Below the pieces are notes generated by a model, which worked only from the letters and a program-made list of their open reading frames with translations, ran no database searches and had not been told where the DNA came from. A stretch of 57,115 nt of DNA, filler included, from Dugesia japonica (lineage: Eukaryota), in the NCBI GenBank assembly GCA_001938525.1. It is 6 parts of 6 records of this genome, joined end to end, with 100 filler letters (N's around TTAATTAATTAA, not from the genome) between each part and the next. Parts side by side here need not be neighbours in the genome. Positions count along the whole stretch, not along the records: positions 38,534 to 47,680 come from MQRL01640604.1; positions 47,781 to 57,115 come from MQRL01488630.1; 4 more parts are not named here. The stretch is one strand, 5' to 3'. Position numbers and translations under genes: made by a program. Position 1 is the stretch's first letter, and each line of letters opens with the position of its first letter. Shown here in pieces: positions 23,844-57,115 of the stretch.

Positions 23844-26800
23844 AATTCTGCTTTGAATACGCCTTTGATATGTATATGGAAGAAAGATTTTCGATTATGT
23901 CTGAATTTCAGACAGTTAACTGTGGAATTACAAGTAAATACGATATGATGATTTCTTTAGTAACAAGGAACTACTTTAAGCCATAGTTGATATGAATAAT
24001 TTTGGAAGCCAGTTTGAGAGTAAATCTGAAGAAATGTCAGTTTTTGCGAAATGCGATTAAAATTGNNNNNNNNNNNNNNNNNNNNNNNNNNNNNNNNCTG
24101 AAGATAGAAGCTTTAATAATATTTGGAAAGTTAAAGTGTGTCAAGACATTGCATAGTTTATTTTAGGGATTTGCAATTACTAAAGCATTTGCAACTATAG
24201 AAAGGAAACTGAAAACTTATGATGTGGTTCAACCAACAAAAAACTGAAATATGGTGGTGAGTTGAATAAGATATTCAAAAGATTAAAGGATCCGTTAATG
24301 ATGATGTTTTCTAGAGTTGAGCAAAGAATTTATACTAGACACTATTACTATTTTTGACATTGCCGAAGCAGTACTGTTGCAGAAGGATAACAGTGAAAAG
24401 GAAAGAACTATTGTATTTAGATTGTATTTGATAATGAGTCATGAGAAAGACTTTTATATCACACAGATATATTCGTAACAGAGGTTTACATTACGAACAG
24501 ACCATAAAAATTAACTTTCGTGATGAGGGCTAATTAGTATCGTCGCCGTTTCAGACATTTATTAATTGCCTTAGCATCGAAAATATGTTTTACATGGTGA
24601 TGCAGATATGTCATATAATTTATAAAAATGTCATAAGAGATTCAAACGAGAATGTTAAACGGGATTAAACCAAGACAATGGTACAATAAGTGGGTATTTT
24701 AAAAAAGAAAATTTAGATTCTGGATGAACAATTGAGAGATTTTAGAATTTTATAAACTATTAAATTCCACAAGAGCGTAAAAATCCTCAGAATATTTGTG
24801 AAAAAAATACATGGGTCGACAGTTGATTCAGGGAATTCAAGAGAGAATACGTAGCTGTAAGGTGTGTCAGAAAACTAAAGTAATGACTATGAGTATCGAT
24901 TCATGAATTTCAAGTATCTGAGATTTTTTAATTTTTATATATAATATTAAAATTGGTTTTTTAAAAATATAAATTAATTGAATAAAGTCTATATATTATA
25001 TATGACAAAATTATAAAATTATAAAAATTATTTTGTAAAACGTATGTTTAAAAATAATCGTAAAATAAAAGTATTTCAAAATTTTAAATTAAAAAATTAT
25101 AAAAATTATTTTGTAAAAATTAGGCTTAAAAAATAATAAAGGTATTTTCAAATTAAAGTCAATATTTATATTATGTTAAATTATAAAATTATAAAAATTA
25201 TTTGGTAAAATTAGGTTTAAAAATAATTAAATATAAAAGTAATTTGGTATTTTAAAAAATCAACATTTTTGAAAAATATTTTAAGATTTCTCAGATTATT
25301 TGTTTGAAATTTGTGAATTGTTATTTCATATTTTCAATTTTAATAAAAGACTTGTAATAATCAATAAACAATTTATGGAGACTTGTGGGACTTTACATTT
25401 AACTAATAATTACAATGGATACTAAGGAAGACACAATAAGTTAAGGGGCATCGAGACGTTTGGAAATTATATATGCAATATATATTGTTGTTGAATCGTC
25501 GACTAATTTATCTTTCTTCATAATAAGCAGCTACTTTGAAACTAAGTTTAAATTGTGAGCTGAATAAATTACTGTTTTAATGCAAAGTTTATTAAATCTT
25601 CATTTATACTCTTGTTTATTTTTAATTCCTGAATGTTAATTTTTTAAAGTTAAAATTTGAGTGAAATATTATTATATGCAACATATTTCATTTCCTTTTT
25701 TACTGAGTGGGATTTATTTATAAGTTTGTTATTTCTGTTTCTTATTTTTTGTTTAAAATTAAATAATTTGTGTTTTAATGGCAATAATATATATTCGACT
25801 TTATTGTTTCTTTTTCTTTAAATTATTTTTGTTTTTCTGAATAGTCCTTACCTTATTTGAGAATTTCTTTTCTTCCTTCATTCTTGAAATTATTCTGTAC
25901 TTGCATATCAATGATTATTATTTTCTTTTATTATTGATTTTGTTCTTTTATTTACTTTTTTTAAAATTAATTATAATATTTGACACGATAAAGTTTTTAT
26001 TACTTGTCAGTAGTGGGTGTTATTGTTTAAAATTAATTGATTTCTCACCAAAGACTCATGAAAATTTTATTTCAGGTTTTGGAACCATTATTTTGTGTAT
26101 ATGTTCAATTAAAAAAGGTACCAGTTCACTTGTGGAAAAGATTTTTTCGGTTTAACTTCATGTAATTAATTTTAAAATATTTTAAAGGTTTATATTTTGT
26201 ATTAAAAGTTCATTTTGAACATTTTATTCTTTATTTTATAATAAGCATATATTGCAATTATTGATGCAATAAATTAATAAAAATAATTAATAATCAAACC
26301 TATTTCTCTTTCGAGTAAAACGACTTGCGACAACCAAAGTATAATAAAAATTATGTTACAGTGTTTTTCTAGATGTTTCATCAACAAGTCAAAATATTTA
26401 ATCATTTTACCAAATTATTTAATCATTGATAATTTATAATTAGTTAAATTAGTTATATTAGTTATATTATATCTAAAAAATCCACATGAATATAACTGAC
26501 AACGATCAAAACAGCATTTAAAATATTGAAATCTCTACAGAAAGTTTATCTACCAAAAACCAGGCCAGAATACCTCAGAGAACCAGGATTTTAGATAATT
26601 CTTAAAGACAACTCATTTGTCAAAAATATGTTATTGTTATTATAATAAATGTGTTATTAATTAGCATATTTGTAGACATATAACCATAATTTTTTCTTAG
26701 TAATAGAAAGTCTTACTTGAGTACAATTTTCTAAAGAAATTATAAAAAATGATTAAATATTTTGACTTGATGAAACATTTTAAACGCATATATATTGATA

Positions 26801-27850
26801 TTTTATTGGTTTCAGCTCTAATGATTGTTTCGTAAAAAATAACGAGATTTTCTGGTTTTAAATTTATTTCTGGTTTGAAGCTCTGATTTATTTAAATTTA
26901 AATTGAATACTGATGAGTAAAATAAACTCATAAGTCTGCTCATAATAAATTTGAAATATTATTGAAATTAAATTATCTTCGAAATTATTTTTTTAAAATT
27001 TACGTTAGAATCTTGAGAATTTTTTCAAGTTAAATTTTGACTACGTTAAATAATGAATATATTTTAAGAACATAGTATTTTAAAAGTTATTTTTAGATTG
27101 TTGCATATAATTCATCTTTTCAATTCTGTATTATTTTAATAGTGTAATTGTCATTCATATAAAGGACAATTATTGATTTCTCTTTAAAACAAGAAGTAAT
27201 CAGTTGAACATTACATACAGATGATAATTTATTAAAACTTTTAAGATAAATGTAGATAATTTTGCACACATGTTATGAATGAATTAATAGTATTCAATAC
27301 GCTATTATTTTTATGTAATCTGATTTTTAAAAAAAATTTTTTTTAGATACGGGNACAATAAGTATAAACAAAAGGCATACTGTTACAGCAATTTGGATCA
27401 TCTGGATGTGATATTTAGTGCAGAATTATTGATAAATATTCGTGATAATTCTCAAACAAATGAAAACTTTGATTGCTTGTTATATTTACGCCGTGATTAA
27501 ATATCAAAAACATTTCATAAAGAAATTTCATCATTTGTAACCATCGAAAATAAGAAGCATTAAATAGAAAAATAAAAGCTAAAGGAAATAGAATTTTTGT
27601 CTTATTATATAAAAGTAGATTATTTTCCATTTGATAAGGATATTTTTATTAAGGGTTGTCAAAACTTATAACGAAATCCAAATTATTTTTTTAAATTAGA
27701 TGAACTTAGAACAGAATTTGATGTAAAATAATTTGAAACGTAATAGTACATACATAAAATAATTAGAGTAGAACATAATTGGAGTTAAAATAAATTAAAA
27801 TTCATTTAAATTAAAAGCTTCGATCAAAATTTTTATTGGTTTTTTGATAA

Positions 27851-27887
27851 TAATTCTAATTTTCGACTTTGTCTTCGTCAGGAATTG
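27851..27887 (-). ncRNA. Minimal type I hammerhead ribozyme
   Basis: Minus strand CAATTC-CTGACGA-A-GAC-AAA-GTC-GAAA-A-TTA-GAATTA. Confidence 0.75.
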
Positions 27888-27900
27888 ACTTTTCAAAAGT

Positions 27901-27937
27901 TAATTCCTGACGAAGACAAAGTCGAAAATTAGAATTA
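27901..27937 (+). ncRNA. Minimal type I hammerhead ribozyme
   Basis: TAATTC-CTGACGA-A-GAC-AAA-GTC-GAAA-A-TTA-GAATTA: 6-bp stem I, intact core, 3-bp stem II, palindromic AAUU stem III. Confidence 0.8.
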
Positions 27938-28149
27938 TTATCAAAAACCAGAAAAACAAATTTTTATCAAAGCTTTTATTTAAAATTAATTCTGAAAAAC
28001 GATCAATGGTTACGTCCAACAATGATTCTCGCAATAATTGCAATTGTAAAATAAAAAGTAAAAAGACTCGACATTAATATTAAAGATTTATTTAAGAATA
28101 ATATATTTTGTATTATTTAAACAAAATTGACTGTTTAAATAATCACTAT

Positions 28150-28933
28150 TTTCTAACTTCCATCTCCATTGAAACTAAACTCGTTTTATTATTCAACTCG
28201 TCTTAACTTTGGCTTATCTAGAAAATTAAGTAAAACTTAAGAACTTAATAATCGTATTCGGACCTTCATATNTGTCTCCACGTTTATGAATATTACGAGG
28301 TTTATTTTTACAAAAACATTTTCACCAACTAAAAATTGCCTTTGAACTCTTGTATCTGATCCATACCTTCTTAATTCCTAATATTTCTACTTTTGCTTCA
28401 TTAACTACTTGTTCATAATTAGCAGGTGTATTCCTCGACAATCCATGTAATAGCACTTTTCTTCCATACAGAACTTCAAATGGAGATCTCTTTATAGCGC
28501 TTTGATATGTCATTAATAGAAAATTCAATCTTTGGAATGTATTTATCCTATGTAAAACTGTTCTTATCAATATTCATTGAAGGGACTAATATATCTCTAA
28601 CTGTTCTAATTACTCGATCAGCTAAACCGTTGGCTTGATGTTGGTAAGGTCATGTAAATTCTTGTGTAATTTTAAATCTTCCACACAACTCGTTCATTTT
28701 GCTGTCTTCAAAAACTCTTCCCCTATCAGATAAGATTGATTTTGGTTTTCCAAATTGGTAAATCTAATTGTTCTTTATAGCACCTGAAAATACTGTTTCA
28801 TCTTGTTTACTAATTGGTATCAGTCGGACTAGTTTTCTAAATCTATCAATAATAACAAGCAAGTACTTTTGTTTAGATTTTTCTCAGAAAAATAGGCCAC
28901 ATCTATTACAATTTGTTCTAATGCCCCAAATTC
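28150..28933 (-). mobile_element. Degenerate Ty3/Gypsy integrase
   Basis: EQIVIDVAYF…KYLLVIIDRF…FGKPKSILSDRG…PYQHQANGLADRVIRT…SPFEVLYGR…YEGP, with stops and frameshifts. Confidence 0.9.
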
Positions 28934-30761: not shown

Positions 30762-30933
30762 AAATTGCAATTATTGCGAGAATAATTGCTGAACATAACC
30801 CATTGATCGTTTTAAAGAATTCATTTAAAAAAAAAGTTTCGATCAAAATTTTTTTTTTGGTTTTTAAAAATAATTTTAAAAAAAGTCAATTCCTGACGAA
30901 GACAAAGTCGAAATTTAGAATTATTTTCAAAAA
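30762..30933. mobile_element. Palindromic element, copy 3, with one hammerhead (30888-30922, +)
   Basis: Starts AATTGCAATTATTGCGAGAATAATTG; contains AATTC-CTGACGA-AGACAAAGTC-GAAA-T-TTA-GAATT; cut by a gap. Confidence 0.75.
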
Positions 30934-31963: not shown

Positions 31964-32791
31964 TAATAACTATTCATTTAATAATATTTATTAAAATATT
32001 CTAATAAATTCTAAAATGATTTTTTTTCTATATAAATATTTGAAAGTTTTATTGCCAAATTTTAGAAATTAGATATGTACATAAAAATAGCGTGAGGTTG
32101 CTTGAAAATATTCTTTGAGATATATTTCTTTAATCAGAGAAAGCAAAATACGAATTTTTTAAATATTCAGCTAATTAATCAAATTTTAAATAAATTGTAA
32201 ACTTTTCCAATCAATAAAAACAAATAAAATTAATTATTTACAATGCAGTAAAAAATATAAATAAAAAAAGAAAAATTATCTATTAAAACAAGAATATATT
32301 AAGGAATTGGTTATAAAATTGAAATTTTCCAAAATTAGACACCTCTATAAAAGTAGCATATCCAAAGGACGAGTAATAATTCCATTGAAATATTTTGTGA
32401 CACCATATTATAAACTAGATAATTTTTGTATAATATCGCAATAATAATAAGTTATAATTAACCTATAAACTAAACATTTACTTAATAATAGACCAATACT
32501 TTGATTTTTAGCATCATGGTAAAAGTTTGATATACTAGGAATACCGCTAACCAAAAAAATTTGGTAACCACTGCACTAATGGTAGATGAAACAATTCTAC
32601 GTGAAAATATAATTGATGAATATATGACTAATTTTAAACAATTAGAATATACATAATTTATTTGTTTAACTAAAAATATATAAATAAATGTTTTTAATAT
32701 TTACTTAAAGTTATTTTTAAATGAAATGAAATTATTCAAACCATAAATTTTATTATTGTTATTTATTTATTACTTATTATTAGTATTTATA

Positions 32792-32906
32792 ATTATTTTA
32801 TCAAAATATAAAAAACAACATTTTGATCGAAGCTTTTAATTTAATCAAATCTCAGATACGATCAGTGGTTAAGTCCAACAATTATTCTCGCAATAATTGT
32901 TATTGT
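32792..32906 (+). repeat. Arm of the palindromic element family (copy 5), no ribozyme core
   Basis: TTTTGATCGAAGCTTTTA…ACGATCAGTGGTTAAGTCCAACAATTATTCTCGCAATAATTG. Confidence 0.7.
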
Positions 32907-35900
32907 ATAAAAATTGAGTTTTATAGTAAATGATGCCCACTGAATTATATTTGAANNNNNNNNNNNNNNNNAAAGAAAATTTAATAAAATTAATTAGACA
33001 TAGTTTATTTGGTATTCTGAAAAATCAACAGAAGAAATACACAAAACAAGTGATATCTTTTTCGTCAATTCAATATGACATTAAAATCGAAATAAATCAT
33101 TTTAATAAATCATTTGCAGTCAAAGAAAAATCTATTAATTCAAAAGATTACATTTCAAACTAGAAATTAGAAAATCAACTACAAAAGAAACTACAAAAAT
33201 GCCAGAAATTAACATTGAAAGAATTAATGTATTCTGTTGAATTCTGTCACTAATAAAATGCAAACTCAAAAAAAGAAATATCACCACTCATATAAATAAC
33301 ATAACATTTCAAGTTCAATTAGTTAATATATTAACAAAAATTTCCATAACAAAAAACCAAATTGACAAAAAACTGTTTCCATCAAGTAGAGATTGAAGTT
33401 AAAAGTACGTGATATTTTCCGTTTATGATTACACTGGTAGCAGTGATGATTCATTGATTTATCGTACTAGGTCAACTGAATTTATACATATTTCGATTTT
33501 TTAGAAATTTCTGATTTACTGAGATAAATTTGTGAATTGATAACTTTCTAATCTGACACATTAGATGCATTATCACTGACCAATTCAAATTGATTTCGAA
33601 TGTTAAATTAATTTTTAATCATAGATAACTGATAGTTGCAACAGGAAAAATAGAAAATATTTATTTTAATATCATAAAATCATGAGACGCTTCGAATTCC
33701 AGAGATGGAAAATAAATGATTTTCTGTCAAAATATATTTTCTTTTTTAATAATGCTAATTATTTTGAAATTTTTGTTTAAATTAATATTAATTGCTTAAT
33801 AATGTTAAGAATATTAAAATATATTGACAAAACTTACGTAAACAAAATTATTTACCAATAAATATCCGTAAAATTATAAATAAATTTCTGATTCTTAAAT
33901 TTGTGAGAAATAATATTAATAATTGCAACTTTTTCAAATTAAAAAAAAGGATCTTATAATGTATAATGAATACTGTAATATTATTTTTAATGTATGGAAC
34001 AACGACACCAATCAAAATGGTGTTGTAAAAAAATCGATTGAAGAAGACTTTGTACTGATTACTTATTCTCAAATTGATATTTATTTCAAATACAAGAATA
34101 GAAAACTTCATAAAACCATATTTGCTATGTCAACAATCAAATAAGAGTTGACAAAAATATTTTTCTATAATTATTTCTCAGTTTTTTCTTACATGNNNNN
34201 NNNNNNNNNNNNNNNNNNNNNNNNNNNNNNNNNNNNNNNNNNNNNNNNNNNNNNNNNNNNNNNNNNNNNNNNNNNNNNNNNNNNNNNNNNNNNNNNNNNN
34301 NNNNNNNNNNNNNNNNNNNNNNNNNNNNNNNNNNNNNNNNNNNNNNNNNNNNNNNNNNNNNNNNNNNNNNNNNNNNNNNNNNNNNNNNNNNNNNNNNNNN
34401 NNNNNNNNNNNNNNNNNNNNNNNNNNNNNNNNNNNNNNNNNNNNNNNNNNNTTATTATAATTATGAGCAGTTAATTAGAAATGTCATAATAAAATACACA
34501 AGGAATACAAAATAAATAAATCAACAACTTCATCATGCATCACAATTAACTACACAAATTAAATTATGAGATGAAAGAATTTTTCTACGAATAACCTTGT
34601 CGTAAGATATTTTATTTATGTCAATGCATTAAAAGCTGTATATAAAACACATTATCAACAAGTGTACCAAATATTTTCCCTGTATGATTTGTGTCATAAT
34701 TATAGATTTAATTTCGCTACATTAATCAAAGTAACATTGAATTAGATAAATTACAATCGAAATGGCATTTTAATGTTTTTAATATACAGTTAATGAGGAA
34801 GTTTCATGTTTATTTTAATCAATCCAGTTTTTGATAATAAAATTCATAAAATTCCAATGACATTCCATTAGTTAAATAAAAATTCCACAAAATTAAATAA
34901 ATAAAAACAATAAAAACAACACCGAAATATTAATAATTAAAAAAAATTATCATAATAAATCAATAAAATCTCACCTAATAAGGACATTCCTGGAATTAGA
35001 AAAAAAACAAAGTTAATAATTCTATTAGTAGAAGATTGTTACAAGTATAAATATATAAAATGAATCAATGTGAAACAATGAACTTTATGGTAATGATTTG
35101 TTTGTATTTGTACTGCTCAATAATTAGTCAATAATGAATACAGACGTATCGTTTATAAGTAATTTTAAGTGCTACAATAAGTTACAACAAATTAACAAAT
35201 AAATAACAGTTACTTTTCTACTTATATGACGTCAAATAAATATTGGATATAAAAATTTTCATAATGGAATTTATTTTTTTTAAAATTTCAATTAAATCAT
35301 GCAGTCCATATTCAATTTTTTTGTTGAAATCATTCTGATTTNAGTAAAGTTTCTTTATAAGAAAATTACATGGGAATGAAAGGAAAAATGGATTTGAAAA
35401 AACCAAAGTAAAATTAACAAGAAAATTTTTAAATCATTTAATTCAGTCATATTCAAACGTTTTGGCAACTAAAAGCTATTAAAAACATGCAGAAATACGT
35501 TATGGTTGCAGGCCGCACAATTTTATAAACTTTAAACAAGATTTAAACATGCAGAATTTCTAAATATTAGATTGATCAAAAAGTTCGCTCGGTTTTGAGA
35601 TTAAAATTTAAAACTTATTTTTCTGAAGTGATTATTAACAATCAATTATTTTTTTCTTTATTTCATAATTTTATTTAAACAAGTAATAGCTGATTTTAAT
35701 ATTTAGTAAATAAACAGCTACAAAACTTTCGAAGATAAGGAGCATATTTACCATATTATTCTTTTTTACTTTTGTAAAACGAAAAAATGCAGAATGCAGA
35801 AAAATATTGACAATAGTAAACATTAATGAGCGCATTTCTGCTTGTAATTTGCTCATGAATGTACGGAACGAGGAAGATCCATTTTAANNNNNNNNNNNNN

Positions 35901-41940: not shown

Positions 41941-43727
41941 CATTGGGTTGGTGCATAATGTTTTGCCGAATTTTAAAGAAAAATTACAATCATAATTTTT
42001 ATTTTATATTCAAACAATTATTAATTATATGTTCACAATTGTTTTTAATAATCATTTGCCATCTCTGAGGTAGTTTCAAAAATCCATAATCGTAGAATTT
42101 TTTGGATATGAATAAGAAAAACTAAGGAATTGTTGTTTTACAAGCTTCAAAAGACTCCAGCTGTTTTTCATTAAGATAGCTCTGCATCGATCGAAACAAA
42201 TGATAATCGAAAGGTGCTATATCTAGAAAATATGGAAGGTTTATAAGCAAATCCAATCCGAAGTCATTCAATTATGAAGAGCCCGAAAAGACTTATGTGG
42301 TACTTATGAACTATCATCTTATTTCTATTGTTTAAACCTGAACGTTTTTCTTCAAGAATTACTTTTAGAACATCTAATTGTGCACAGTAGNNNNNNNNNN
42401 NNNNNNNNNNNNNNNNNNNNNNNNNNNNNNNNNNNNNNNNNNNNNNNNNNNNNNNNNAAACACAACATTATCTACTTTTGGTCTAATTCTGCTTTTGGAG
42501 ATGTTACTGATGTTTCAACTTCTTTTCTCCAATGCCGTTTTTGTTGTACATTATTATACATAGTCCATTTTCATGTACTTTTTTAATTCGTTTCAAAACG
42601 GACTCATTTTTGCTGCAATTCAAAAAGAAATGCAAGCAAAAAAAAAANTGCNNNCAATTACCGTATATACTCGCATATAAACCGATCCCACAAATTTGGT
42701 TAAAAACATGTCCAAAATAGATGACCCGCGTATAAGCCGACCTATCTTTTTTAAGTTCGGAAAATTTGGCCACTCCAGTAATGCAAGCGTTTTTTGCTCT
42801 AGGCATTTCTTCTAAATAATTTTTACTTTTCTTCCATTCCATTAATTGCTTTTCATTGTCATCAAATTCACGAACTGCTGCGCAATTGTTGTTAGCTATT
42901 GCAAAATTAACAACTTTTGGTTTAAAAGCAACATCATATGATGACTGCTTCTGTTTAATGGCACCAAAAAGCATTNNNNNNNNNNNNNNNNNNNNNNNNN
43001 NNNNNNNNNNNNNNNNNNNNNNNNNNNNNNNNNNNNNNNNNNNNNNNATATTAATTTACAAAATATCAATTAGTAAATGACACATTACATTTATTATCAA
43101 TTAATTATTGAATCATAGTTATTTTAATTAAAAGTAGGTTCGCATATAAACCGACCCATCAACTTTGAAAAAAAAATTATTGAAAAGTTCTCGGCCTATA
43201 CGCGAGTATATACAGTATGTTTTTTTATTGATAATCTTTCTAACTGTGGTATGGTCTAGACATAAGATAACTCAAATTTCCAATATGATAAGATAAATAG
43301 TGTTTATTTATCAATCAGTGCCTTAATTTTGTCATTATGAACCCTAGATGACATCCAAAAGAAATTCGTTTTAAGAGGCTAATATCTCCATCAAGAAATT
43401 TTGTAAACCATATTCGAATATTCCGTTCTTTAACTGCATCCTTTCTGCGAAGATAGCGTATTTATCTAATCGTTTACGCAGAATTGTTTCCTCTTTTAAA
43501 GCAATGAAGCATAATAGATCGAAAAATCAAATCTTAATCCACCATTTCTAAAATTCATAAAAATTGTAACTTAAAACAAATTTAATATTTTATTAAAGTA
43601 ATATTAATTTTGGATGTATTTTCTATTAGTTTAAATATAGATTTTTGTTGCATGATAAATTACATTCTTTTCATAGTCATGAAATATAATGCTAAAAACC
43701 GACAAAACATTATGCACCAACCCAATA
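41941..43727 (-). mobile_element. Mariner element with both TIRs, decayed, interrupted by a pogo-like element
   Basis: TIRs ATTGGGTTGGTGCATAATGTTTTGCCGA / CCGACAAAACATTATGCACCAACCCAAT; transposase remnants KWTMYNNVQQKRHW and PYFLDIAPFDYHLFRSMQSYL. Confidence 0.9.
42661..43215 (-). mobile_element. Internally deleted pogo/Tc2-like element retaining a Brinker-type DNA-binding domain
   Basis: TIRs CCGTATATACTCGCATATAAACCGA / TCGGCCTATACGCGAGTATATACAG with TA TSD. ORF SYDVAFKPKVVNFAIANNNCAAVREFDDNEKQLMEWKK resembles the POGK-like BrkDBD. Confidence 0.85.
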
Positions 43728-44640: not shown

Positions 44641-44652
44641 TTTAATAAATAC

Positions 44653-45078
44653 TTTCAAAGACGTATGACATAACCATATGAAGCGCATTTCTCAATTGAA
44701 CTTTACGAACATACATGGCCTCTGTTTGTCTGTTTGTGACATAATATTGCCAGAGCTTACTGGAAACAATATCATGATAACTATTAGCATTGAGTGTTAA
44801 ATTATCGTGATGGAAAACGTTACATTTTGAGTTTGGATTGGTCAATACAGATGAATGATTTCCACCTAAAGTAGCAGCTATATATGCGGCAGCAATCATG
44901 TTGTTTCCAGGATTTGATAATAACGGACAGTTCATAGCAAAGTTTTGCGGAATTTGAGAAGAAAAGGCGGACATGTTTGGAAGAGGTATACTTGATAACA
45001 CACCATTGTTAGTAAAATGAGAATTATTTGGTGAAAAAGAAGTAGACATCGGTTGCTGGTGATGAGAATTAAAATTTC
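44653..45078 (-). CDS. GLD2: Exon of a probable GLD-2/TENT2 cytoplasmic poly(A) polymerase (start of the catalytic region)
   Basis: AG acceptor at 45080-45079, GT donor at 44652-44651. Ends HDIVSSKLWQYYVTNRQTEAMYVRKVQLRNALHMVMSYVFE, the helices that precede the GSS motif in GLD-2. The GSS/DxD exons are not seen. Confidence 0.7.
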
Positions 45079-45122
45079 CTATTAAATATTTATTTATTCA
45101 AACAAAAACTAAAATATATAAC

Positions 45123-46633
45123 CTTCCGAATTAATAAATGCAATATTTGAGCAAGAAATTGGCTGACAAGAACCAGTGGAACCAGATAAATGATTAATTT
45201 CAGAATTTCCTAATTCAGAATGCGAAATAGTTTGACTGACGTTCTTATTGATCAACTTTTTCTTTTTGTTACTATCGCAATCCGTATTATCTATAGTTAC
45301 TGTATTTTTTTCTTCAGATTCAACGACTAGTTTCTCCTTAAAATCCACAGGCTTATTACAGGGTTGAGAAAATTTACTTTCATTGATTAATGACAAATCG
45401 CGATCATTATTTCCCAGTTGGCATTTGGTAATTTCAATAGTATCCTCATTACAATACACAAATTCCTCTTCCTCGACATTCACTATAAATTTTGCAGAAT
45501 CCTTTTTCTGATTTTCAAAAGAATCAATAACAATTTTCTTAAAATTTTGATTTTTCTTTGACTTAGAAATCTCAGAAACACTGCTATTACATTCCGAAAT
45601 TGTCGGTTGATAATTGTTTATTTCCGTAACAGAATGATTTGAATTCAATTTCACACAGCTGTCAGTTCTTTCTATATTCTCTCCGCCATTTGACAATAAA
45701 AGACAATCTTTGGATTTATTGTGAACAGCCGAATCATGATTCTGCAAAATAGCATTCGACGGTTTTGATACTATTCCATTGAATTGAATATAGTTTGAGT
45801 GAACACCTTCATTGTCTAATTTTATATTTTCCATTCCTTTAACATGATGACTTTTACTTGCAGTTTTTGAATTATATTGCAAATCTGATCCTGATAAAGA
45901 CACAGCATTCGCCTCATTATTCGAAGATTTCTTCCATTCGTTATATTTAGAGTTTGAATTGAAGTTGTTATTATTTGGTGATTTAGAGTCTTTATTTTGA
46001 TAGAATGATTGATTTGACGATAACGAACCTGCTGAATTGTCATGAAACAGATGGAAATCATTGTTTACTGATTTATTATTAGCAATAGAGCCAGGAAATG
46101 TTAATAACGGTCCATTTGAATTCAATCCTGATTGATATCTTCGAGAATGATTTGTTTCAGAATTGAAATTGGTATTTGCTCGCGACGAACGATTTGAGTG
46201 CATTGACCGAGAATAATTTGATGAATTCTGATAATGATGATTATTTTGACCTGCAATAAATCGATTATTAGATCCAGAACCAGAATAGGAAGTGTTCATT
46301 GGAAAAATTGAAGAATATTGCTGTGAACTGAAATTTTGATGATTCCCATGATAGTGAGATGAGAATGCATTGCCACTGATAATTGGTGACTGAGAAGAAT
46401 TAGAATGTGTTTGATTATTACTAAGCTGATTAGGAATGAAATGATGTGGAGAATTTAATAAATTTGTTATATGGTTATTAATATTGGATCCATTCAAGAA
46501 TGTATTATTACAATTAGCACTCGAATTATTGCCGGGAGAGCAAAATAAATTATTGACTATATTTGGTGACATAAACCACGAATTTTGATGAGTGTGATGG
46601 TGCTGCTGTTGTGAAAATGCATTGTGATAAGAT
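45123..46633 (-). CDS. GLD2: Large Asn/Ser/His-rich exon of the same gene
   Basis: Open 1.5-kb frame from an AG acceptor (46635-46634). A 44-nt GT-AG intron (45122-45079) joins it in frame to the next exon (…NSE-G-NFNSHHQQPMSTS). The first exon was not located. Confidence 0.7.
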
Positions 46634-47254
46634 CTAAGTTTGAATAGAAAGTTTAAACATTGTACTATTACACTTTTACGAAATTTTATTGAAAATACAC
46701 TTCAAAATAACTTCGTTAATATGAAAAAAACAATATATTCCGAGAATTTTAATTGATAAGAACGAATTTATGTTATTTAAGATAATAGATTAATCTTAAC
46801 TGATTTAATAATTAGGGCAGAAAAGTGACTTAGAAAGACCTATCTAAACATTAATTTTTGGATCCACGGATCTGATTGGCAACGCCTCATGCAACCTACT
46901 TCCAATAATCGCTTAAGTTTCTGCACAAAAATTTTAAAATATTTATAACTGATCTTCAACTAATGTTATGTTTAGCAATATTACTTTGATTACCAATTCA
47001 ACGATGCTCCTTAATTCTTGAATAGAGATGACAGGAAGTCTCTTGAATGTAGGTAACATCACATCAATTACATTTATATTGATAAACAATATTGAAACAC
47101 AATCTAAATGGTATCTTAGAATTATTACTAGACATTTGTATTATTTTTAAGGTTGTGAAAATATTTTATAATTTCAAGAATTACTTTTATAATTTAACAA
47201 CTCACTTTTAAGTTATTTAAACTTTTAAGAATTGTTCAAAAATGGTTTAAGCTT

Positions 47255-47452
47255 ATGGCTTGTTCAATAACTAAACTCTTTGAAAAACAACCAGCAGACA
47301 GAAATCGAAAAGATGAAAATGAATTATTCAAAGTTTTAGAAGTTGTATGGAAAAATTTACAAACAGATTTCTTCATTAACATTGTTGAAAGTATGCCATG
47401 CAGATGCCAACCTTTCGCTGACAATGATGGATTACCAACAAAAAAAATATGA
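47255..47452 (+). mobile_element. Tc1 transposase C-terminal relic
   Basis: ELFKVLEVVWKNL…IVESMPCRCQPFADNDGLPTK resembles Tc1 LVESMPRRCQAVI.A.G.PTKY. Confidence 0.75.
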
Positions 47453-48299
47453 ATTTTTAATAAATTGTTTCAAGTATTTTGTCTTATTTGTGTAGGGATA
47501 GGATTTTTTTGTGCGTTTTGTATATATATATATATATATATTTAAATAACCAAAGAACAATGGCAATCTTTTAATAAAAACTTTTAAACGCCATTTCAAT
47601 ATATACTTCTGCACTACATGTTTCGACAGCATAACTGTCATCTTCGGATACAATAATAATTCTTTTTTTGAAAATTCTTTNNNNNNNNNNNNNNNNNNNN
47701 NNNNNNNNNNNNNNNNNNNNNNNNTTAATTAATTAANNNNNNNNNNNNNNNNNNNNNNNNNNNNNNNNNNNNNNNNNNNNTATTTATTTATTCTCTCTCA
47801 TATTTATAGTTTCCTTTTCCTCTATTTAACCATTGCTTCAAATTTCAATTTTTTTTACATTTCCTTTTGAGTTACAGCTATTCTATACTCGTTCTAGCCC
47901 AAAAAATTACTGGGGTCTCCGAAAATAATTCTGACCCGGAATTTCCTCAATAAAATTCCGTACTTCACTCATTTAATCGTCTGAGTCTCCATATCTATCA
48001 AATTTCTTTAAAATTCAACTTTACTGGTGATCATCGGTCCTGAAAGGGCCCTCAAGTAAGTTATCTATAAATATCCAAAACAGAAAAGAGAGAAGATATA
48101 AGCAAATTGTTAGCATACATAAACACACCATACCATGTTAGCATTAAAGACTCATTTAATAAAATAATTGTCAAATCATAGTTCCTACATTCCAAATCAC
48201 TGTTTACTGTTAGATATCATAATATATTCTATTTGATCACAAAGAATTCCTGGATCGAACAAGAGAATTGTTGTCGAAGTATTTCTCTGCCGGGATACT

Positions 48300-49348
48300 C
48301 AAAATTGATAAACTACTCTGCCGGAGTATACATAATTGATAAATCGCGCTGCCGGGATTGTTGATTGGTAAACTGCTCAGCTGGTTTTGGTGCGTGTGAA
48401 TCATTTGATGAACACTCTGTCGGGGTTGGTTGGACTCGTATAATACTGTTTGGTTGGGCTTGATTGTTTGCTTGCAGGTGGTAATATAGGTTATTTACAC
48501 AGGGATGCAGTGTAGAGCTGCCACAAAAATAGTGTCATTCGAGGAGATTTATCGACCGCAGAATAGATTTTCGTCAGATTCTGAAAAAGGCCATCTGTTT
48601 GTAGGTTCGGGGGTTGGAATTTCTGGAATTCAAAGACTCGTGTTTCACCGTTGTTGAGCTCGTTGTGCTAAATAATTAATTTCCATCGCTATGGGTCTCT
48701 CTGATCGAAACTGATTAAGTCGGATTGGTTCGCCGGGCGGCTTCTTGGCGGCAACATTACTGGAATGGGTGTACTTTAGAGTTTTTCGTATTTACTCCTC
48801 AATTTTCCATACTCATTAGTCAGCTCNACATTCTCGATAATTAGGTTCTCATTTTCTTCTTTCATCTCTTGTTTCTTTTGGTTTAATCGTTCATTTTCCT
48901 GAATCAGATATTTGTTGCTATTTTCCAAGTTTTGGTTTATGATCATTATATCCTCGTGTGCTTCTTTCCATCGTTTACTCTCATGCTTCCAGCTTTCTTT
49001 ATCCCTTATCTCTTTTTGAATACGGTTGAAATGAATTTCTTGAGCATGCAGTCGAGAATTGTTATTTTACTCGATGGTTTTCTCTAACATCTTTGCCTTC
49101 TTTCGATTCTAGTTTAGTTCGGATTGTAATTCGTCAATTGTACTGCTCATTCGCTTTCTCTCTAATGACGTCTCTTTTTTAATCTCTTCTCGGTATTGTA
49201 ATTTAAAATATTTAATTCGGCCCTCTGCTTCATTGATTCGGTCCTTCTGACCCTCAATTATTTTTTCCAACGTTCGTTGCCTTTCTTGGGACTTTGTTAA
49301 TCTCTCTTTTAGTCGGTAAATTTGGTTTTCATAGAATTTTGCTGCCAT
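48300..49348 (-). pseudogene. Coiled-coil accessory ORF of the Gypsy element (decayed)
   Basis: MAAKFYENQIYRLKERL… stays in frame through isolated stops for about 190 aa of E/K/Q/N-rich heptads, then turns Pro-rich (STPIPVMLPPRSRP). Confidence 0.6.
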
Positions 49349-49816
49349 TTCCTGATAATTATAATAAGGTTTTCAAATTGATATTTTAGTGCTCGAAAGT
49401 TAATTCACGTATTTTACTTTTATAAGCTGAGCTAGTTTTAGTTTATTTGTTCATTTATTTTGTTTTATTATGCTTATAATTGTTGTGGTCATATATAATT
49501 TAATCAGCCGGGATGCTCTCTTGGTTCTTTTAGATTAACAATCAATTGGGTTTCGCTAGGGTTTATTACTTGGATAATAACATTTGACTTCGACTTTTTC
49601 TTCAGATCTGCATTCAAAATTACTTCTTGTTTACTTCGTGTTACTGCACTCTTCCTCATAACATACTTCAACGTTACTCAAAATTTATTCTACTCGGCTT
49701 CATCAATCGTGTTCGGCTCCTGTGATCCATAATTTTGGTCATACTATTATTATTACTAGATACTCTAATATTACATTTCGAGTGTTTCAAGCTATTTACA
49801 CAATTTTCACTTCTCT

Positions 49817-51790
49817 CTACCACACTTGTTTGCCGGCCCTTTTCCCTGGGTTACTGGTCCTCATCATCGCCTTTGGCGGATGTATATATTTATCGCTTAA
49901 TTCCAACAACTCATGTCGGACCTTTGGTCTCGAATATTGTCCTTTCTTTGCCTTTATACACAAAATTATCGTAATTATTAGTACCATCGTAGCTATTCCA
50001 CTGACTCCGCCAATAAGTCTGATTGGCCATCCTTCATTCGTTTCTGCTAATATAGTTGCTGTCGTCACTTCTTCTAATTGTTTCGCTTCTTCTGGTTTGA
50101 TTTTAAGTTCGTTGAACCTTGCTATCGTTTCAACTATTTGTCGAACATCTCATTTTTCTCTTGACTTAACGTTTTTGGATGAATGTCCGATTCTTCATTT
50201 CGGTTTATAACGGTTTTATGCTGAATTACCGCATTCAATTCCACTTTGTCAGTGGTACTAGTATTGGTACTGCTACTCATATTTCTCGTTGCTAGTGTCT
50301 TGAATGTCCTTACTTTTTTATCTCGTGTCGTCTTTGCTTTGCTTGTTGACTTGATTGTCACTGTTGATTCACTTTTTATTTTTATTGTCANTTCTAACGT
50401 ACTCAATGTTTGCTTTGTCATAATTCNTGACTTTGTAACTCTTTTTGTCGTTCTACCTGGTGGTAACTCCCACACTATCATATATTCCACTTAGAACCAT
50501 ATTCCATATCTCAGTTGTATCTCACGTTTTAATTCTCGTTGATTGTCATCCCATTTATATTTTGATAATAAATCGCCGTTTGCCCAATCTTTGAGTGATG
50601 AATAATGTCCGATTCTCATATTTTCTTTTCCTTCTCGTAACACTGATAAGTCTACAAACTTTCCTGCCCAATTTATTTGAATTCCGAGCGCATTTCCTCT
50701 GCTGTAAGGTATATTGCCTCGTTTTACATCGAATCATCTTCCTCGTTTTGTCCAAAGTACTTCATGCGCCCCTTCTGGTGTAAATCTCCATAAGTGTGAT
50801 ATATATGATAGATGTTTCTTTGCACAATATTTCTCATTTCTACCCCATGTTGGATTATTCTTTCTCGTATTGAGTATAAAATATGGAAATAATTTCTGTA
50901 GTAGATACTAAATATTCTACTGACTTCAAAAATTCCTGAATCTTTGTAGTAACTTGACGTCCACGATTCCTCTTGGTATGGATTTCCATATTCTCCTTCA
51001 TATTGTATTATGCGCATTTCTTGTGGTTTTTCTCCTGTTATCTCAAGATTCACTTGCCAAGATTCTCTAAATATCTTTACAGTCATTGAGTGTCCTTTAG
51101 CGTGTATACCGGGTTGTACCCATGTAAATGGAGGTCCATATTCTATTTCCGTATAATGACCTCCTTTTGTCATGACACGTCTCAATCCTTTTCTCGTTAT
51201 CGTCTGTATCTTTACCTCGAATCTCGTTATATATACTCGATGCTCCATCTAAACATCTTCATAATCATAGCATTCTTCTCCATTGCTTACACGTATCATT
51301 ATCACAATTATTATCATTTATATCCACAGATTTCCTGGTAATAATATTTGACTCTCTCCTCTGGGGTTTTCCATTTCAAATTCTCTTCTTTTATCTGCTT
51401 TTTCTCCTTTGAACGTGATCGTTATCAAAATCAATGACACTGTTATTGACGTTATTATAGTCGCTGATAGTATTAATGTCCAACATTTGTTATTCTCACT
51501 TTTACGTTGATTTGGTATTATTGCCGGACCCGTTGTTCACACACTCTCGCTCCAAATCACCTTTATCATTATTAACGCTATTAATAAATATAACCATTTA
51601 TCCATCATTTGACCGTTTTATTTGATCCACTTGTCGCTGTCATGGTCTCATTAAGTTCATATAATTTCGTTGACCGAATTCCAATTCTTGTGGGCCTCAC
51701 CATTACCACTATCGTTATTATACACATTGTAAATATTATTATTGGTATCGATGCGATACATGTCCACGCAATTTTCTCCCATCGTCTTCC
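49817..51790 (-). pseudogene. Env-position membrane protein region (several TM/signal segments, ectodomain, Thr-rich stalk, TM anchor)
   Basis: Hydrophobic segments near 51780, 51595, 51485 and 51330; ORFs 51248-50724, 50490-50134 (Thr/Ser/Lys-rich) and 50068-49817 (LIGGVSGIATMVLIITIILCIKAKK). Confidence 0.6.
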
Positions 51791-53253
51791 AAGTGACGGG
51801 TTTTTATCTAATATTACTGCCTTCTTTCTGTTCTTGTAGATTGATTCGTTTATAGCTGTTGTTATTTCTTCGTACTGTCATCTTTTATTACTGGTATCTC
51901 TGGTAGAGAGACCTTTTGTCCCCTTTCTTCTTCTTCTGCTTCCATTTTCTCAAGCTCTTTGCATTCTTTTTCCATTTCCTTTTGTTTCCATATTAGATAC
52001 CTTCCATCATGTTGCCATTTTTGTTGAATTTTTATCCATCTCGGTATCATATCTTCTGGATCCTCTTCGCACCCTTTTGTGATGTCCCACATATCATATT
52101 CGAACTCTTTGCACCATCTCGTTAGATACCACTGATCCATAATTTTGTCTGCTTCTTCCATTTCTTTTCTTTTTTAGATTCGACATTTCTCCGTATTTCG
52201 TAATTCTTCATATATTCTCCACCATTAAAGTATTAATGTCCAACATTTGTTATTCTCACTTTTACGTTGATTTGGTATTATTGCCGGACCCNTTGTTCAC
52301 ACACCCTCGCTCCAAATCACCTTTATCATTATTAANGCTTCCGGGTCCTCTTCGCAACTCTTGATAATATCTCTCTCATTTTCCGTATGTTAATCAGTTT
52401 CTCTGTCGCTCCATGTCGTCTCAAACCAATTTGATCTGTCGTTCAATGTTTTAATTACATATTCGTTATCCTTTTGAATCGTTTTGAGCTCGTCTGTCGC
52501 TTTTGGTTTTTTTGTTACAAGTTTTTCGTATTCGTTGTCACTGTCGTCGTCTTTCAATTTAATTTCTGTGCCTGTTTTACACCGATTCTGTACTTGTCGT
52601 CTTTTATTTCTGTTTATTCGACTTTTTCTCTTTCGTCTCTTTGCTCTTTGCTCCTGTCTTGAGTCATTGATACCTTCTTTTTGATCGCTTTCCTCTTTAT
52701 TTTGTTCAATTTCCAATTTCTTTATTAATTCTTGACATTATACTTTCAATGTTTGTAAGAAAAGTAGCGATCAATCTCAATTTTCAACTTCTGTAAACGT
52801 CTCGAATTGTTTCCACATTGTCATAATTTTCTGTCCGTCTTCCTCTGACGTGTTCAGCCTCTTAATTTTTGTGTCTGTATCTTCTATGAAATCCATCACA
52901 TCATCTCCTGCAAACGTGTTCTGCTTTATCTCTTGATTCTGGTTTGTTTTGTTCTCCGCTTTTGGTTGAACCGTCTTTTTCAATGCTGTTCTTTGTCTTT
53001 CTAGTGCGTCGAATGCTTTTTTACCTCATATAATCTCCTTAGCTGCTGTTTCTTTGTTCCATAATTGCTTTTCATTGTTTTTCATATAATTGTCCGTAAT
53101 TATTGACAGCAGATCACCTCTTACTTTTGAAAAGTCAACGTCCTCGTCGATTCGCGACTGCTACTTGATACGATAAGGTTGCTCTTCCATTTTGCGTTGT
53201 ACCTTATGTAGTTCTTTAACTGTTTTCTCCAATTGATGCCTCATTATCTCTGC

Positions 53254-54524
53254 ACAGGTTAAACATAGCTTCTGAAACACTGTTTTTGGTATTGGCAACT
53301 CGATTACTTCATCCTCTGCTTCACATCGGAGACATCCTTGACTACCTTACGCCGGATGGTTTCTTAACCAGCATCTTTTTTGTGCTATCATTATTAAGGA
53401 GTCCTTAACCTTGATCTCCGTCTTTTGGAAACATTTATTACATAAATTCTCTAAGTCTCCCGCAACAATTGGACATTTAGTTGGTTTCTTTAATACACAT
53501 CGATTACACTTCTTGGCTTCTGGTTGCTCTTGATTTACATGTATAATATCCCATATTTTCTCTTCAGCTTCTTTCAATTGTAGTTCCATTATTATTACAC
53601 ATTCCAAGCATACGTCTTTTAACTTGTTTTCGGTTGTTACGATCCCGGTTTCTATTCGATTTTTATTACTATATTTGCATTTGACTTCTCCTTGAATTTG
53701 ATTACTTGTTAATTCTCGTTTCTTTTGTCCCACGTTAATCTATGATAACTGAATCTCTGTACGGAGATTAATTTGACAGCTTCTACATAATACTTCGCTG
53801 CTGTCATGTCGATTGGACATTTTGTAGGTCTGAAGGTTTTACAATTTCCTTCCCAGTTCAATGGTGAATGTACTTCTTCATTTTTGTCGATCTCGAATCG
53901 ATTTGACTTATTAAATGTCCATCTTTCTTGTTGCCTCATTGTAATTCTCTGTGAAATTAGTAGACATGGTTTACACAATGATTTCCAGTTGTTCGCCGCT
54001 CCGTGACTTTTTATTCTGTATCGTCCACATCTTGGATTATCGCATTGTCGATCCTCTTGAATTATTCTTTTTTCCACTGAATGATAATATTGATTACGTA
54101 TATCTCGTCTATTTTCAATTATAGTTAAATTTTTTTTAGTTGATATTTTCTCATAATCTCCTCAGTGGTTAGTTGAATATTTATTCTTATGGGTTTAGCT
54201 GCTGATAAGCCTTTTTAATGATTGTATACACATCTAATTTTGCTACGCATTATTTGTCTCGCATTTGTCATACAATTATTACACCATTGTTTTTTATTTC
54301 TTCTTGGTCACGTTTAATTTTATTACTACTTCCATACACTGTATACAAGCTGCTCTTTCGATGTCGGTTTTCTCTCTCCACATTTGTAATGACATTTGAT
54401 TAATCCCTCTATCTACATGTATGATTTTATTCTGTGTTACTCGTAAGGATTGATAACACATTTTTAACAATTGACTCTTGTTCAAAGGTGCCGTTTCCGG
54501 TCTCGTTTCTTTACATATATTACA
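53254..54524 (-). pseudogene. Tandem C4 zinc-finger-like array (Cx2-4C-x17-19-Cx2C)
   Basis: Examples: CNRC-x18-CNKC, CLRC-x19-CLTC, CDNPRC-x17-CKPC, CNIC-x18-CYQS, CKYS-x19-CLEC. Confidence 0.7.
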
Positions 54525-54604
54525 CTGATTACTTTCTTCGCTTGATTCTGGAGCTCCAAACTTCCTTTTATTGGTTTCGCTGTTAACATCATCACAAGAT
54601 GTCT

Positions 54605-57115
54605 TTATCTGATCGAATATCTATCTTCTTTATCCGGATTATCTAATTTAAATCGAACTCGTTTCATTTTACTCGTTTCTGGTTCTGCTTCGACTAAGTT
54701 TTCCTTGTTTACTAATATCTCCTTGACTGCTACTTTACATCTTGACACATGTACAATACTTGGTTTCTTTAAAGGTTTCCCCAATTCTTTTAATTTCAGA
54801 TTTTTTGCGGTTGTCTCGATTACCATATATGGGCCTTTATTTGCTCGCTTTAATTTATCCGTTTTTCTAATATCGATTGTCTGTGTATTTACTAACACTA
54901 GATCTCCCTTTTTAAATGATTGAGCTTCTGATTTACGATCAAAGAATTCTTTGAAACTTTGTTGACTAAATCTTGCATTTGCTTCAGCCAATTTCCACAT
55001 CTCTCTCATTCGCTCTTTCATGCCTGTCACATACTCATCTTCGTCCATATATTGTGAAATTGGTGGTTGATATTCTAAATCGATAGACATGTTACATTCT
55101 CATCCATACATTAAACTAAACAGTGTTGCTCTTGTCGTTGGATATACTCCCATTCTGTACGCAAATAGACATAAATTTAAATGTTTGTCCCATTCTCTTT
55201 GATCTTTTGATGCATAACTCAATAACATTCTTGTTAAAGTTTGATTGAATCTCTCTGTCATTCCGTTCGTCTACAGGTGATATGCGGATGTCCGTAATTT
55301 GTAGATATTGAAGAAACTCGTAACTTCTTTCATCAACTCGCTCAAAAAATTCTTTCCTTGATCCGTTAAGATTTTCTTTGGAGGACCGTAACGCCTAAAT
55401 ACTTTGGCGATGATTGCTGCTTTTTGGTTTCTCAACGCAAAGGCTTCCGGAAATTTTGATAATTAATCAACCACTGTTAAAATGTATATCATTCCACTGT
55501 CCGTTGGTGGTAATGGCCAGATTATATCCATCGCTATTATATCCATTGGTGCTGCTGGCAATGGAATTGGTTGTAATGAAACTTTGAATTTCTTCCCGGT
55601 TCCTCTCCTTGCTGCGCATATCTAGCATTTTTCTACCCATGCTTTCACGCTTGTCGTTATATGTGACCAAAATTATTTCGCTCTCAATTCTGATTCTGTC
55701 TTTTTAGCTGACATGTGACCTCCTAATATTCCATTATGGTATTGTTCCAAAATCTTTGCTCGTCTATTTTTAGGTATAACCAATAACATTTTGTCGCTCT
55801 CTTTCATCCTTAACCATCCGTTTATTATTGCATATCGTCCTCCTCGTTTCTTTAGATGTTCTTTCATACTTTTTTTACACTCGACTTTACTCAAATCGTA
55901 ATGTTTTAGATAATTTAAAATTATCTTAATCTCTTCATCTTCATCTTTATCCTTTTTCAGACCTTTAAAATCTTTATTCTCTGCTAATATCATGCATAAT
56001 GTCCGTATTTCTTGATTCATTAACTGGTGAATATCGATTACCTCATTATCTTGTATTTTAGTTTCCACTTTGTCTTCCGCTCTTGACATGTAATCTGCAT
56101 TCGCATTCGCTTTGCCAGATTTATACTTTACTAAAGGTGCATATTCTTGAGGTTTCATGACCCATCTTGCCATTCGATTTACCTGTAACGGTTTTTGCCC
56201 GATCATTATAAGTGGTTGGTGATCCGTATAAATCACTAATTCATGTCCGAGTATCAATGGTTTCTTAAAATCCGGTTGCACCAATATCGGTGCTGTCATT
56301 AATTTTTCTCGTATGATCTCGAATGCCTTTTGATGTTCGTCAGTCCATATGAATGTCACATCTTGTCGTACTAATGATTGAATTGGTTTGACTATCACCG
56401 CAAATCCTTTAATAAATTTTCTGTAATAGTTCGCCATACCTAGGAATACTATATCATTTACATTCTTTGGTACTGGTAATTTCTTTATCTTTTCAAGATT
56501 TGCTGGATCTGGTTGCTTTCCGTGATCTTAAATTAAATGACCTAAATATGTCACTTGATTTTTCGCACATTCACATTTTGTCGGTTTTACTCTAAAATTC
56601 TTCATTCTTAATCGTACAAATACATTTCTTAAATCTTTTAAGTGCTCTTCAAATATCGTCGAAAATATTAATAAATCATCGATATATACCATACTCTGTG
56701 GTATTCCATGTGCTACAAAATTCATTGTTCGTTAGAATGATGCTGGTGCATTCGTCAATCCGAATGGCATCCTCATAAATTGATATAAGTCTTTTTCTGC
56801 TGAAAATGCGGTTTTCTCTTTGTCTGCTTCTTCTATTTTGATTTGCCAATAACCACTCCTCAAATTTAATGTTGTGAATACCTTTGCATTATATAATAAC
56901 ACTAACATCTAGTTTATGTCTGGTAATGGATACGTATCCTTTTTGGTTTTAGCATTTAGTCTTCGATAATCAATACAAAATCTCGTTGATCCGTCTTTTT
57001 ATTTTAACTAATACAACTGGAAATCGCCATCGTGAACAACTCAGCTCTAACACTTTATTAAAAAGCATATCATCGATTTTCTCGGCGCAAATCTCATTAT
57101 CCGCCACTGCCTGTT
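54605..57115 (-). mobile_element. pol: Ty3/Gypsy pol (RT-RNase H-integrase), decayed
   Basis: RT: RFCIDYRRLN, SGYWQI, MPFGLTNAPASF, VYIDDLLIFS. RH end: YTDHQPL…NANADYMSR. IN: HHCC, MDII, TDQGKNF, TNGMTERFNQT, KGPY. RT-RH-IN order. Multiple stops and frameshifts. Confidence 0.97.

Follow-up and report, generated by a model that had tools for sequence, protein, structure and literature searches.

A decayed Ty3/Gypsy retrotransposon of Dugesia japonica that likely carries its own cargo genes after integrase

The stretch of DNA considered here (hereafter 'the window') comprises 57,115 nucleotides, filler included, of draft sequence from the planarian Dugesia japonica (GenBank assembly GCA_001938525.1), in which six parts of six records are joined end to end. 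It is AT-rich and contains many gaps, with a GC content of 15-35% outside the element described below, and planarian genomes have been reported to contain over 70% A/T (PMC11410931). The final part of the window (47,781-57,115) carries on its minus strand a decayed Ty3/Gypsy pol gene followed by several further open reading frames (ORFs), and the locus as a whole is likely one degraded representative of a Ty3/Gypsy retrotransposon that occurs in many copies and has element-owned cargo genes located after its integrase. A first-pass annotation had described, downstream of integrase, a zinc-finger array, a charged helical region with a tryptophan-containing repeat, a multi-transmembrane region and a coiled-coil ORF, and all of these blocks were recovered on the minus strand and in that order (Table 1).

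The pol gene is read in one frame that starts at the window end and contains 12 stops in 836 codons, and it extends beyond that end toward protease and gag. Its domains are of Gypsy type and follow the order reverse transcriptase (RT)-RNase H-integrase (Pfam matches RVT_1, 1e-28; Integrase_H2C2, 1e-14; rve, 9e-10), an arrangement that identifies the element as Ty3/Gypsy (Metaviridae). Models of RNase H align only at positions 1-33 and 65-105, and about 60 residues of that domain are deleted near 56,250 in the window copy; at that point (loose end at 56256), RNA reads of related copies proceed into sequence that resembles RNase H. The integrase C-terminus displays a GPY/F module, with KGPY at residue 760 and a weak match to SH3_Tf2-1, and is closed by the motif RYx[LIF]R. 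No chromodomain was found by Pfam in pol or in the ORF-A pieces, and the element is thus not classed as a chromovirus.

ORF-A begins with the predicted zinc fingers, in which each unit follows the pattern C-x2-4-C, x17-21, C-x2-C and then a likely helix, a cysteine spacing that is typical of treble-clef C4 fingers. The array withstood a shuffling test, in that 475 residues contain 10 CxxC pairs, as compared to a shuffle mean of 1.8 and to none of 5000 shuffles that equalled the observed count. Sequence searches of the PDB with ORF-A gave weak LIM-domain matches (E 0.2-0.5), and an Atlas search with one finger ORF gave a best score of 0.86 with low recognition, both of which serve as leads only. 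In the charged region that follows, a patch rich in arginine and lysine at about 52,600-52,660 is likely a nuclear localization signal (NLS) or an RNA-binding segment. The two repeat units noticed earlier (DIIKSCEEDPE and DITKGCEEDPE) were located with starts at 52371 and 52086, and align with a z of 5.45 (0 of 2000 shuffles), a post hoc value anchored on a motif that had already been seen. Directly after the first unit lies a 111-nucleotide duplicate of an ORF-B piece that contains two single N bases and shares a few bases at each joint; it is a copy-specific rearrangement or an assembly artefact. A 650-residue piece of ORF-A was searched against 1.84 billion representatives and found no credible relative among them; its sole match, to a bacterial-type repeat protein, was rejected as an artefact whose score was summed over 14 weak stretches.

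ORF-A overlaps ORF-B1, the stop of which in turn overlaps a double ATG that opens ORF-B2 (51605-51611, minus strand). A stop that overlaps a downstream ATG recalls termination-reinitiation signals; the overlap seen here resembles that arrangement, and may be due to chance. The multi-transmembrane region was confirmed as four hydrophobic segments in ORF-B (at 51760, 51473, 51350 and 50017; Kyte-Doolittle 19-mer mean of at least 1.9), and a fifth match, at 48122, falls in non-coding DNA. The start of ORF-B2 at 51608 is signal-like, and is followed by a transmembrane (TM) segment at 51473, an internal signal-like segment at 51350, an anchor at 50017 and a basic tail. Between that internal signal-like segment and the anchor lie a beta-rich ectodomain of about 270 residues, which contains an internal repeat in two copies (about 135 residues; score 51, z about 4, with 4-6 of 2000 shuffles at three of five split points), and a stalk that is 35% serine and threonine. 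Judged from hydrophobicity and charge, the simplest consistent topology of ORF-B2 would be a signal, a short lumenal peptide, a TM segment, a basic loop, an internal signal, the ectodomain, the stalk, the anchor and the basic tail.

The env position of this protein, together with its signal-like segments, ectodomain, anchor and basic tail, argues for a true envelope fusogen of unrecognised type, and hence for an infectious retrovirus-like agent; that interpretation is regarded as quite improbable. Envelope-bearing Gypsy elements have been sorted into F-type and gB-type classes (PMC13524379). The decayed ORF-B agrees neither with the F type, which is marked by a furin site, fusion peptide, heptads and conserved cysteines, nor with the gB type and its long cysteine-bridged ectodomain: no RxxR furin site is present (searched as Rx[KR]R), each piece has 0-2 cysteines, the head of about 270 residues has one or two and is set on a mucin-like stalk, and neither Pfam nor the PDB gave a match. 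Because it lacks a furin site and a cysteine frame, ORF-B is not considered an envelope of the F or gB type, although decay of the copy limits this conclusion, and the earlier suggestion that the element was 'possibly enveloped' finds no support in its classical meaning. It is very probable that the surface protein is not a classical fusogen, and ORF-B likely serves in attachment or tethering. A search with ORF-B among longer proteins (530-2000 residues) gave no relative in 1109 candidates.

ORF-C is separated from ORF-B by a 470-nucleotide non-coding spacer, and its first 190 residues (45% E/K/Q/R, no proline, heptad bias) agree with the coiled coil proposed at the outset. Both ORF-C and the first pieces of the finger region were compared with Pfam and with the related elements described below, and ORF-C also with the PDB; no Pfam family and no gag family matched ORF-C, and the PDB gave only weak coiled-coil matches (MafG/CENP-S). 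Its membership in the element is indicated by strand, composition and decay only. The first-pass annotation had placed the end of coding-like sequence at about 48.3 kb. A Pro/Gln-rich frame runs on after ORF-C to about 48,300, the purine bias ends at about 48,565, and positions 47781-48300 are non-coding. The 3' region is interrupted by an assembly gap (47681-47780), and contains near 47,870 a short purine run before TGTAA, which is an unproven candidate for a polypurine tract or the start of a long terminal repeat (LTR).

Table 1. Features of the window, with those of the element listed first
Feature	Position	Strand	Basis or remark
Decayed Ty3/Gypsy pol	57115-54605	minus	RT, RNase H with internal deletion, integrase with GPY/F module
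RYx[LIF]R motif closing integrase	54608-54622	minus	abuts frame change into ORF-A
ORF-A, whole	54620-51862	minus	four frames
ORF-A N-part, about seven predicted C4 treble-clef-type zinc fingers	53240-54620	minus	three partly degenerate
ORF-A C-part, charged helical region	51862-53239	minus	Arg/Lys-rich patch, two-copy Trp/CEEDPE repeat
111-nucleotide duplicate of ORF-B piece 51469-51579 (97%)	52229-52339	minus	inside ORF-A Trp-repeat region
ORF-B, whole	51877-49817	minus	four frames
ORF-B1, 90-codon frame	51605-51877	minus	one hydrophobic segment
ORF-B2, predicted type I membrane protein(s)	49817-51608	minus	hydrophobicity, charge, repeat
ORF-C, predicted coiled coil of about 190 residues, then Pro-rich stretch	48569-49348	minus	composition, heptad bias
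Mostly non-coding 3' region	47781-48568	minus	31-bp tandem repeat at 48285-48358
TM plus C2-domain protein, single-ORF host gene	318-1529	plus	Pfam
DNA-transposon remnant, DDE_3	2774-3389	plus	Pfam E 1e-4
Short inverted-repeat family, like miniature inverted-repeat transposable elements	7225-7447, 27782-28054, 30800-30933, 32789-32913		several copies
ZMAT2-like zinc finger, single-ORF host gene	7826-8455	plus	Pfam
Very AT-rich ORF pieces between gaps	9594-10649	minus	weak integrase SAM-like match, E 0.016
Gypsy RNase H fragment	24308-24454	plus	tblastn E 3e-3
Gypsy integrase fragment	28460-28877	minus	tblastn E 1e-11
DNA-transposon remnant, Brinker DNA-binding domain	42504-43055	minus	Pfam E 2e-5
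Host gene with long Asn/Ser-rich N-terminus	44642-46701	minus	no Pfam match
Tc1-like piece	47180-47460	plus	by eye, no Pfam support

Strand bias, decay and copy number all bear on the ownership of these blocks. The purine bias of the sense strand (0.58-0.69) continues past pol until about 48,565. Decay was measured with a frame-switch-tolerant lesion score (cost per 100 codons, against 200 local shuffles), which amounted to 1.20 for pol, 1.75 for the finger block, 1.96 for the charged block, 1.47 for ORF-B and 1.92 for ORF-C (0 of 200 shuffles in each case), and was at chance in the spacer (4.46; 24 of 200), the 3' region (4.95; 119 of 200) and the opposite strands. The test is not fully specific, because the intended host control (46702-47680) was also depleted of lesions (3.37; 0 of 200). 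Frame changes were placed near 54,610, 54,300, 54,140, 53,815, 51,870, 51,610, 50,730 and 50,145.

Copy number was assessed by placing reads and contigs on the single N-free stretch of the element (52337-57115). The runs that contain the stretch all bear the same species label, with no RNA run among those listed, and the six best have contig sets of 678-933 million letters. Of two host-labelled contig sets, run X1 contributed 2163 contigs and run X6 1721, mostly less than 95% alike (for X1, 72 at 99% or more, 286 at 95-99%, 798 at 90-95% and 1007 under 90%), and all 30 bins of the stretch were covered, cargo as well as pol. Three pieces among 16 examined, of about 3955, span the junction between pol and ORF-A: X1 record 4 (54277-54708) and X6 record 12 (54311-54708) at about 87% identity, and X1 record 5 (54568-55066) at about 83%. 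Other, diverged copies therefore share that joint, and the multicopy check that had been proposed for the cargo is borne out for pol and the finger region, which are multicopy and linked within the stretch covered.

These results also bear on whether the locus is a composite, in which unrelated repeats or another element would be nested or mis-assembled behind an ordinary pol, with ORF-C possibly the start of another element's gag. Such an origin would be in keeping with the draft assembly and its gaps, with the single N bases and internal duplicate, with the spacer that sets ORF-C apart, and with a gag-like ORF seen by eye (no Pfam match) after the cargo of L001, one of the related elements described below. 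It is nonetheless judged improbable, since pol and ORF-A are bridged in diverged contigs, ORF-A starts at the RYx[LIF]R motif, where the cargo of the related elements also starts, ORF-A and ORF-B1 overlap, the blocks share one strand and similar decay throughout, and ORF-C matches no gag family. That the cargo belongs to the element is held with considerable confidence.

A search with pol residues 330-836 returned three proteins at 39-41% identity, scoring well above the other 67 matches, and a scan of metagenomes returned nine loci, five of them close (L001-L005); scans of IMG/VR returned no relatives. The relatives so defined are metagenome elements (L001-L005 and P0005-P0007) whose Pols are 38-41% identical to that of the window. 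In an integrase tree of 65 rows, consisting of the window and those 64 of 77 candidates with enough coverage (L008 and L009 being left out), all eight fall with the window on one side of a branch with a support of 99 (SH-aLRT, the Shimodaira-Hasegawa-like approximate likelihood-ratio test), the window being deepest. The RYx[LIF]R motif follows GPY/F in all nine clade members, and in one of the 42 Pols outside the clade in which a GPY/F-like motif occurs; RYx[LIF]R was chosen after the clade had been seen.

The Pol frame continues for 430-1189 residues past GPY/F in all eight relatives, and in seven of them it closes with a strong TM segment and a brief tail behind it, in the manner of a type I membrane protein. 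The position of the motif in the window, where it abuts a frame change, fits an original in-frame fusion of cargo to Pol and is no proof of it; such a fusion is considered probable. The ORFs of L001-L005, P0005 and P0006 are unbroken, and those of L003 (3-7106) and L004 (1-6660) encode polyproteins of 2200-2400 residues, in which RT-RNase H-integrase is followed by extra aspartic protease domain(s), ankyrin repeats, an internal signal, FN3-like modules and an anchor; in L003 a protease precedes RT. In P0007, integrase is followed in frame by two extra aspartic protease domains, which are separated by a C2H2-like motif. Language-model features class the ectodomain of P0006 as FN3-like (0.94; 180 features in common), and weak Pfam hints of FN3 occur in P0006 and L004. 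Separate downstream ORFs match RNase_T in L003, L004 and, weakly, L002, and ORFs of L005 and L001 align pairwise to these exonuclease ORFs (L001 only via L005 and weakly L004); in total, DEDDh exonuclease ORFs are recognised by Pfam or pairwise match in four of the five relatives with flanking DNA, and the fifth has a weaker relative of these ORFs. Two exonuclease-family ORFs follow the polyprotein in L003 and L004, the first of which appears by eye to be without a DxE motif. A RING-finger ORF (L005:2684-4135; zf-RING_UBOX, 5e-7) lies between the Pol-membrane polyprotein and the exonuclease-like ORF, and a weak ubiquitin-like Pfam match was found among the relatives' cargo.

The retention of a type I membrane protein in this slot by seven of eight relatives could be taken as further support for a fusogen, whereas the FN3-like ectodomain of P0006 argues against one, the FN3 fold being typical of adhesion and receptor proteins. 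Closest relatives with other cargo in the same slot suggest that the element belongs to a lineage that likely uses surface proteins unlike known viral envelopes. The initial proposal that accessory genes are carried by a complex Gypsy lineage is supported by cargo as decayed as pol, by a finger block that is multicopy and bridged to it, and by cargo-bearing relatives.

A number of observations weigh against this account. The copy evidence is confined to pol, the finger block and part of the charged region of ORF-A (52337-57115), and the two long bridging records, from X1 and X6, may derive from a single genomic copy that was sampled twice. From two RNA runs, with about a quarter of each used, 84 and 2 reads fell on the stretch, none at 95% identity or above. 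No LTR or target-site duplication was found, the window stopping short of the 5' end and a gap cutting the 3' end. A fused chain running from ORF-A through all hydrophobic segments yields no consistent topology, and ORF-B2 may be a separate ORF. AlphaFold models were unusable both for part of ORF-B (predicted local distance difference test (pLDDT) 38.8, single sequence) and for the L004/L003 ectodomain (pLDDT 29.0). The tree is a quick IQ-TREE reconstruction with SH-aLRT support only and no named reference elements. The cargo of the window showed no tblastn match to that of the relatives, exonuclease ORFs included, none of seven pairwise ectodomain tests was significant, and an FN3-module profile gave at most 1.9 bits on the window; that profile is itself weak, because L001, L003, L004 and P0005 obtained no held-out score (L005, 17.4; L002, 7.3; P0006, 6.9). 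Because the cargo sequences do not match, the parallel between the window and its relatives is one of layout only.

The following mechanism, in which we infer the function of every cargo block, is proposed. The element would copy itself by the ordinary Gypsy route, with Pol probably translated on into ORF-A as a single polyprotein, as in all eight relatives. ORF-A, with its C4 fingers and Arg-rich patch, is likely nucleic-acid-binding and may act as a nuclear regulator of element RNA, or as an integration tether; the former proposal follows the precedent of CERV of Cer1, a non-envelope regulator in the env position (PMC10309623). The membrane part would enter the endoplasmic reticulum via internal signal segments and be released by signal peptidase, and the resulting surface protein would present a head of two domains on its mucin-like stalk, link capsids to vesicles or to membranes of the secretory pathway, and permit attachment to other cells. 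Within the clade, the post-integrase slot would serve as an exchangeable cassette for aspartic proteases, ankyrins, FN3-like ectodomains, DEDDh exonucleases and RING fingers.

A role of the cargo in passage from cell to cell is conceivable, if not the favoured expectation. The DEDDh exonucleases, RING finger, ankyrins and weak ubiquitin-like match of the relatives are typical host-conflict domains, and would suit cargo that is owned by the element and directed at the host (as a decoy receptor, or as anti-silencing or ubiquitin-type modulators) and has no part in particle movement; similar proposals have been made for Burro (PMC6431247) and for rotifer ORF3s (PMC5408684). This alternative is viewed as unlikely, given that the membrane protein is fused in frame to Pol in seven of eight relatives and its production is therefore tied to the replication polyprotein.

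The broadest form of the proposed account, which is put forward tentatively and as rather doubtful, is that of an undescribed invertebrate lineage of Metaviridae in which exchangeable surface proteins fused to Pol (with FN3 adhesion modules among the relatives and the two-repeat domain in the window) have taken the place of the fusogen, accompanied by multi-finger or exonuclease regulators, and in which capsids are passed between cells in vesicles. If true, this would give retroelements a third way to spread, next to envelopes of the F and gB types. A clade with a Pol-fused type I membrane protein of neither type, in a slot whose content is swapped, would widen the coding range of LTR retrotransposons, and offers a test of how elements that have no classical envelope gain access to stem and germ cells or move from one cell to another; because the relatives have unbroken ORFs, that question can be approached without the decayed copy.

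The remainder of the window contains host genes and fragments of other repeats (Table 1), and no second copy of the element region. The ZMAT2-like gene shares 63% identity with one protein and, across most of its length, 32-35% with named homologues. About 1 kb downstream of the element, and on its strand, the host gene at 44642-46701 looks like the first part of a gene for a GLD-2-type poly(A) polymerase. The AT-rich ORF pieces at 9594-10649 are possibly the remnant of a viral or tyrosine-recombinase element, and a 34-bp tandem repeat lies beside them at 10.7-11.1 kb.

Several known systems resemble the element in part. The assumption that Gypsy elements carry nothing beyond integrase except an env gene or a chromodomain proved too strong, and cargo after pol is already known from rotifer elements (PMC5408684) and from Cer1 (PMC10309623). 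Errantiviruses likewise carry a membrane-protein ORF downstream of a Gypsy pol, and a broad survey reports for flatworms and nematodes only gB-type Env, in the order gag-env-pol (PMC13524379); unlike the errantiviral proteins, ORF-B of the window is without a furin site, a cysteine frame or an F or gB match.

The ORF in the env position of Cer1 encodes CERV, a cysteine-rich, non-envelope protein that acts in export of Cer1 RNA, and which resembles ORF-A as a long in-frame extension after pol with a possible C4 finger and a basic NLS; unlike the window, and compared by description, CERV has one cysteine loop, and no type I membrane protein is described in the accessible portion of that report (PMC10309623). 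The Juno and Vesta elements of bdelloid rotifers have non-env ORF3s in a variable slot after pol, with exonucleases and with TM and coiled-coil ORFs, and these are separate and short (210-230 residues for the TM and coiled-coil types) or are DEDDy or GDSL enzymes (PMC5408684). Neither a DEDDy exonuclease nor a GDSL esterase was matched by Pfam in the cargo of the window, which differs from those elements by its multi-finger array, as do its relatives by RNase_T-family (DEDDh-type) exonucleases and Pol-fused membrane proteins; none of the relatives, in turn, has a C4 finger array. No description of this domain set, or of a clade with Pol-fused FN3, was found in the literature covered, which excluded most subscription journals, Repbase, Dfam and Grohme 2018, and there is some chance, on the lower side, that the family is already catalogued in one of the latter three.

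A parallel in overall design is found in the giant planarian Gypsy elements Burro/GYPSM1, where a Gypsy pol is likewise contained within a very long, cargo-bearing polyprotein, and where an env-like region that resembles gypsy Env/F proteins is placed upstream of RT, with BCL2 on one side and protease on the other (PMC6431247). No BIR, MATH, BCL2, ankyrin or F-type match was found by Pfam downstream of the window integrase; the region upstream of RT is beyond the window and may hold Burro-like cargo. An AT-rich host and zinc-finger and Smc-like coiled-coil modules are common to both, as are ankyrins in the relatives L003 and L004, and, unlike Burro as described, the window element carries its cargo after integrase (PMC6431247).

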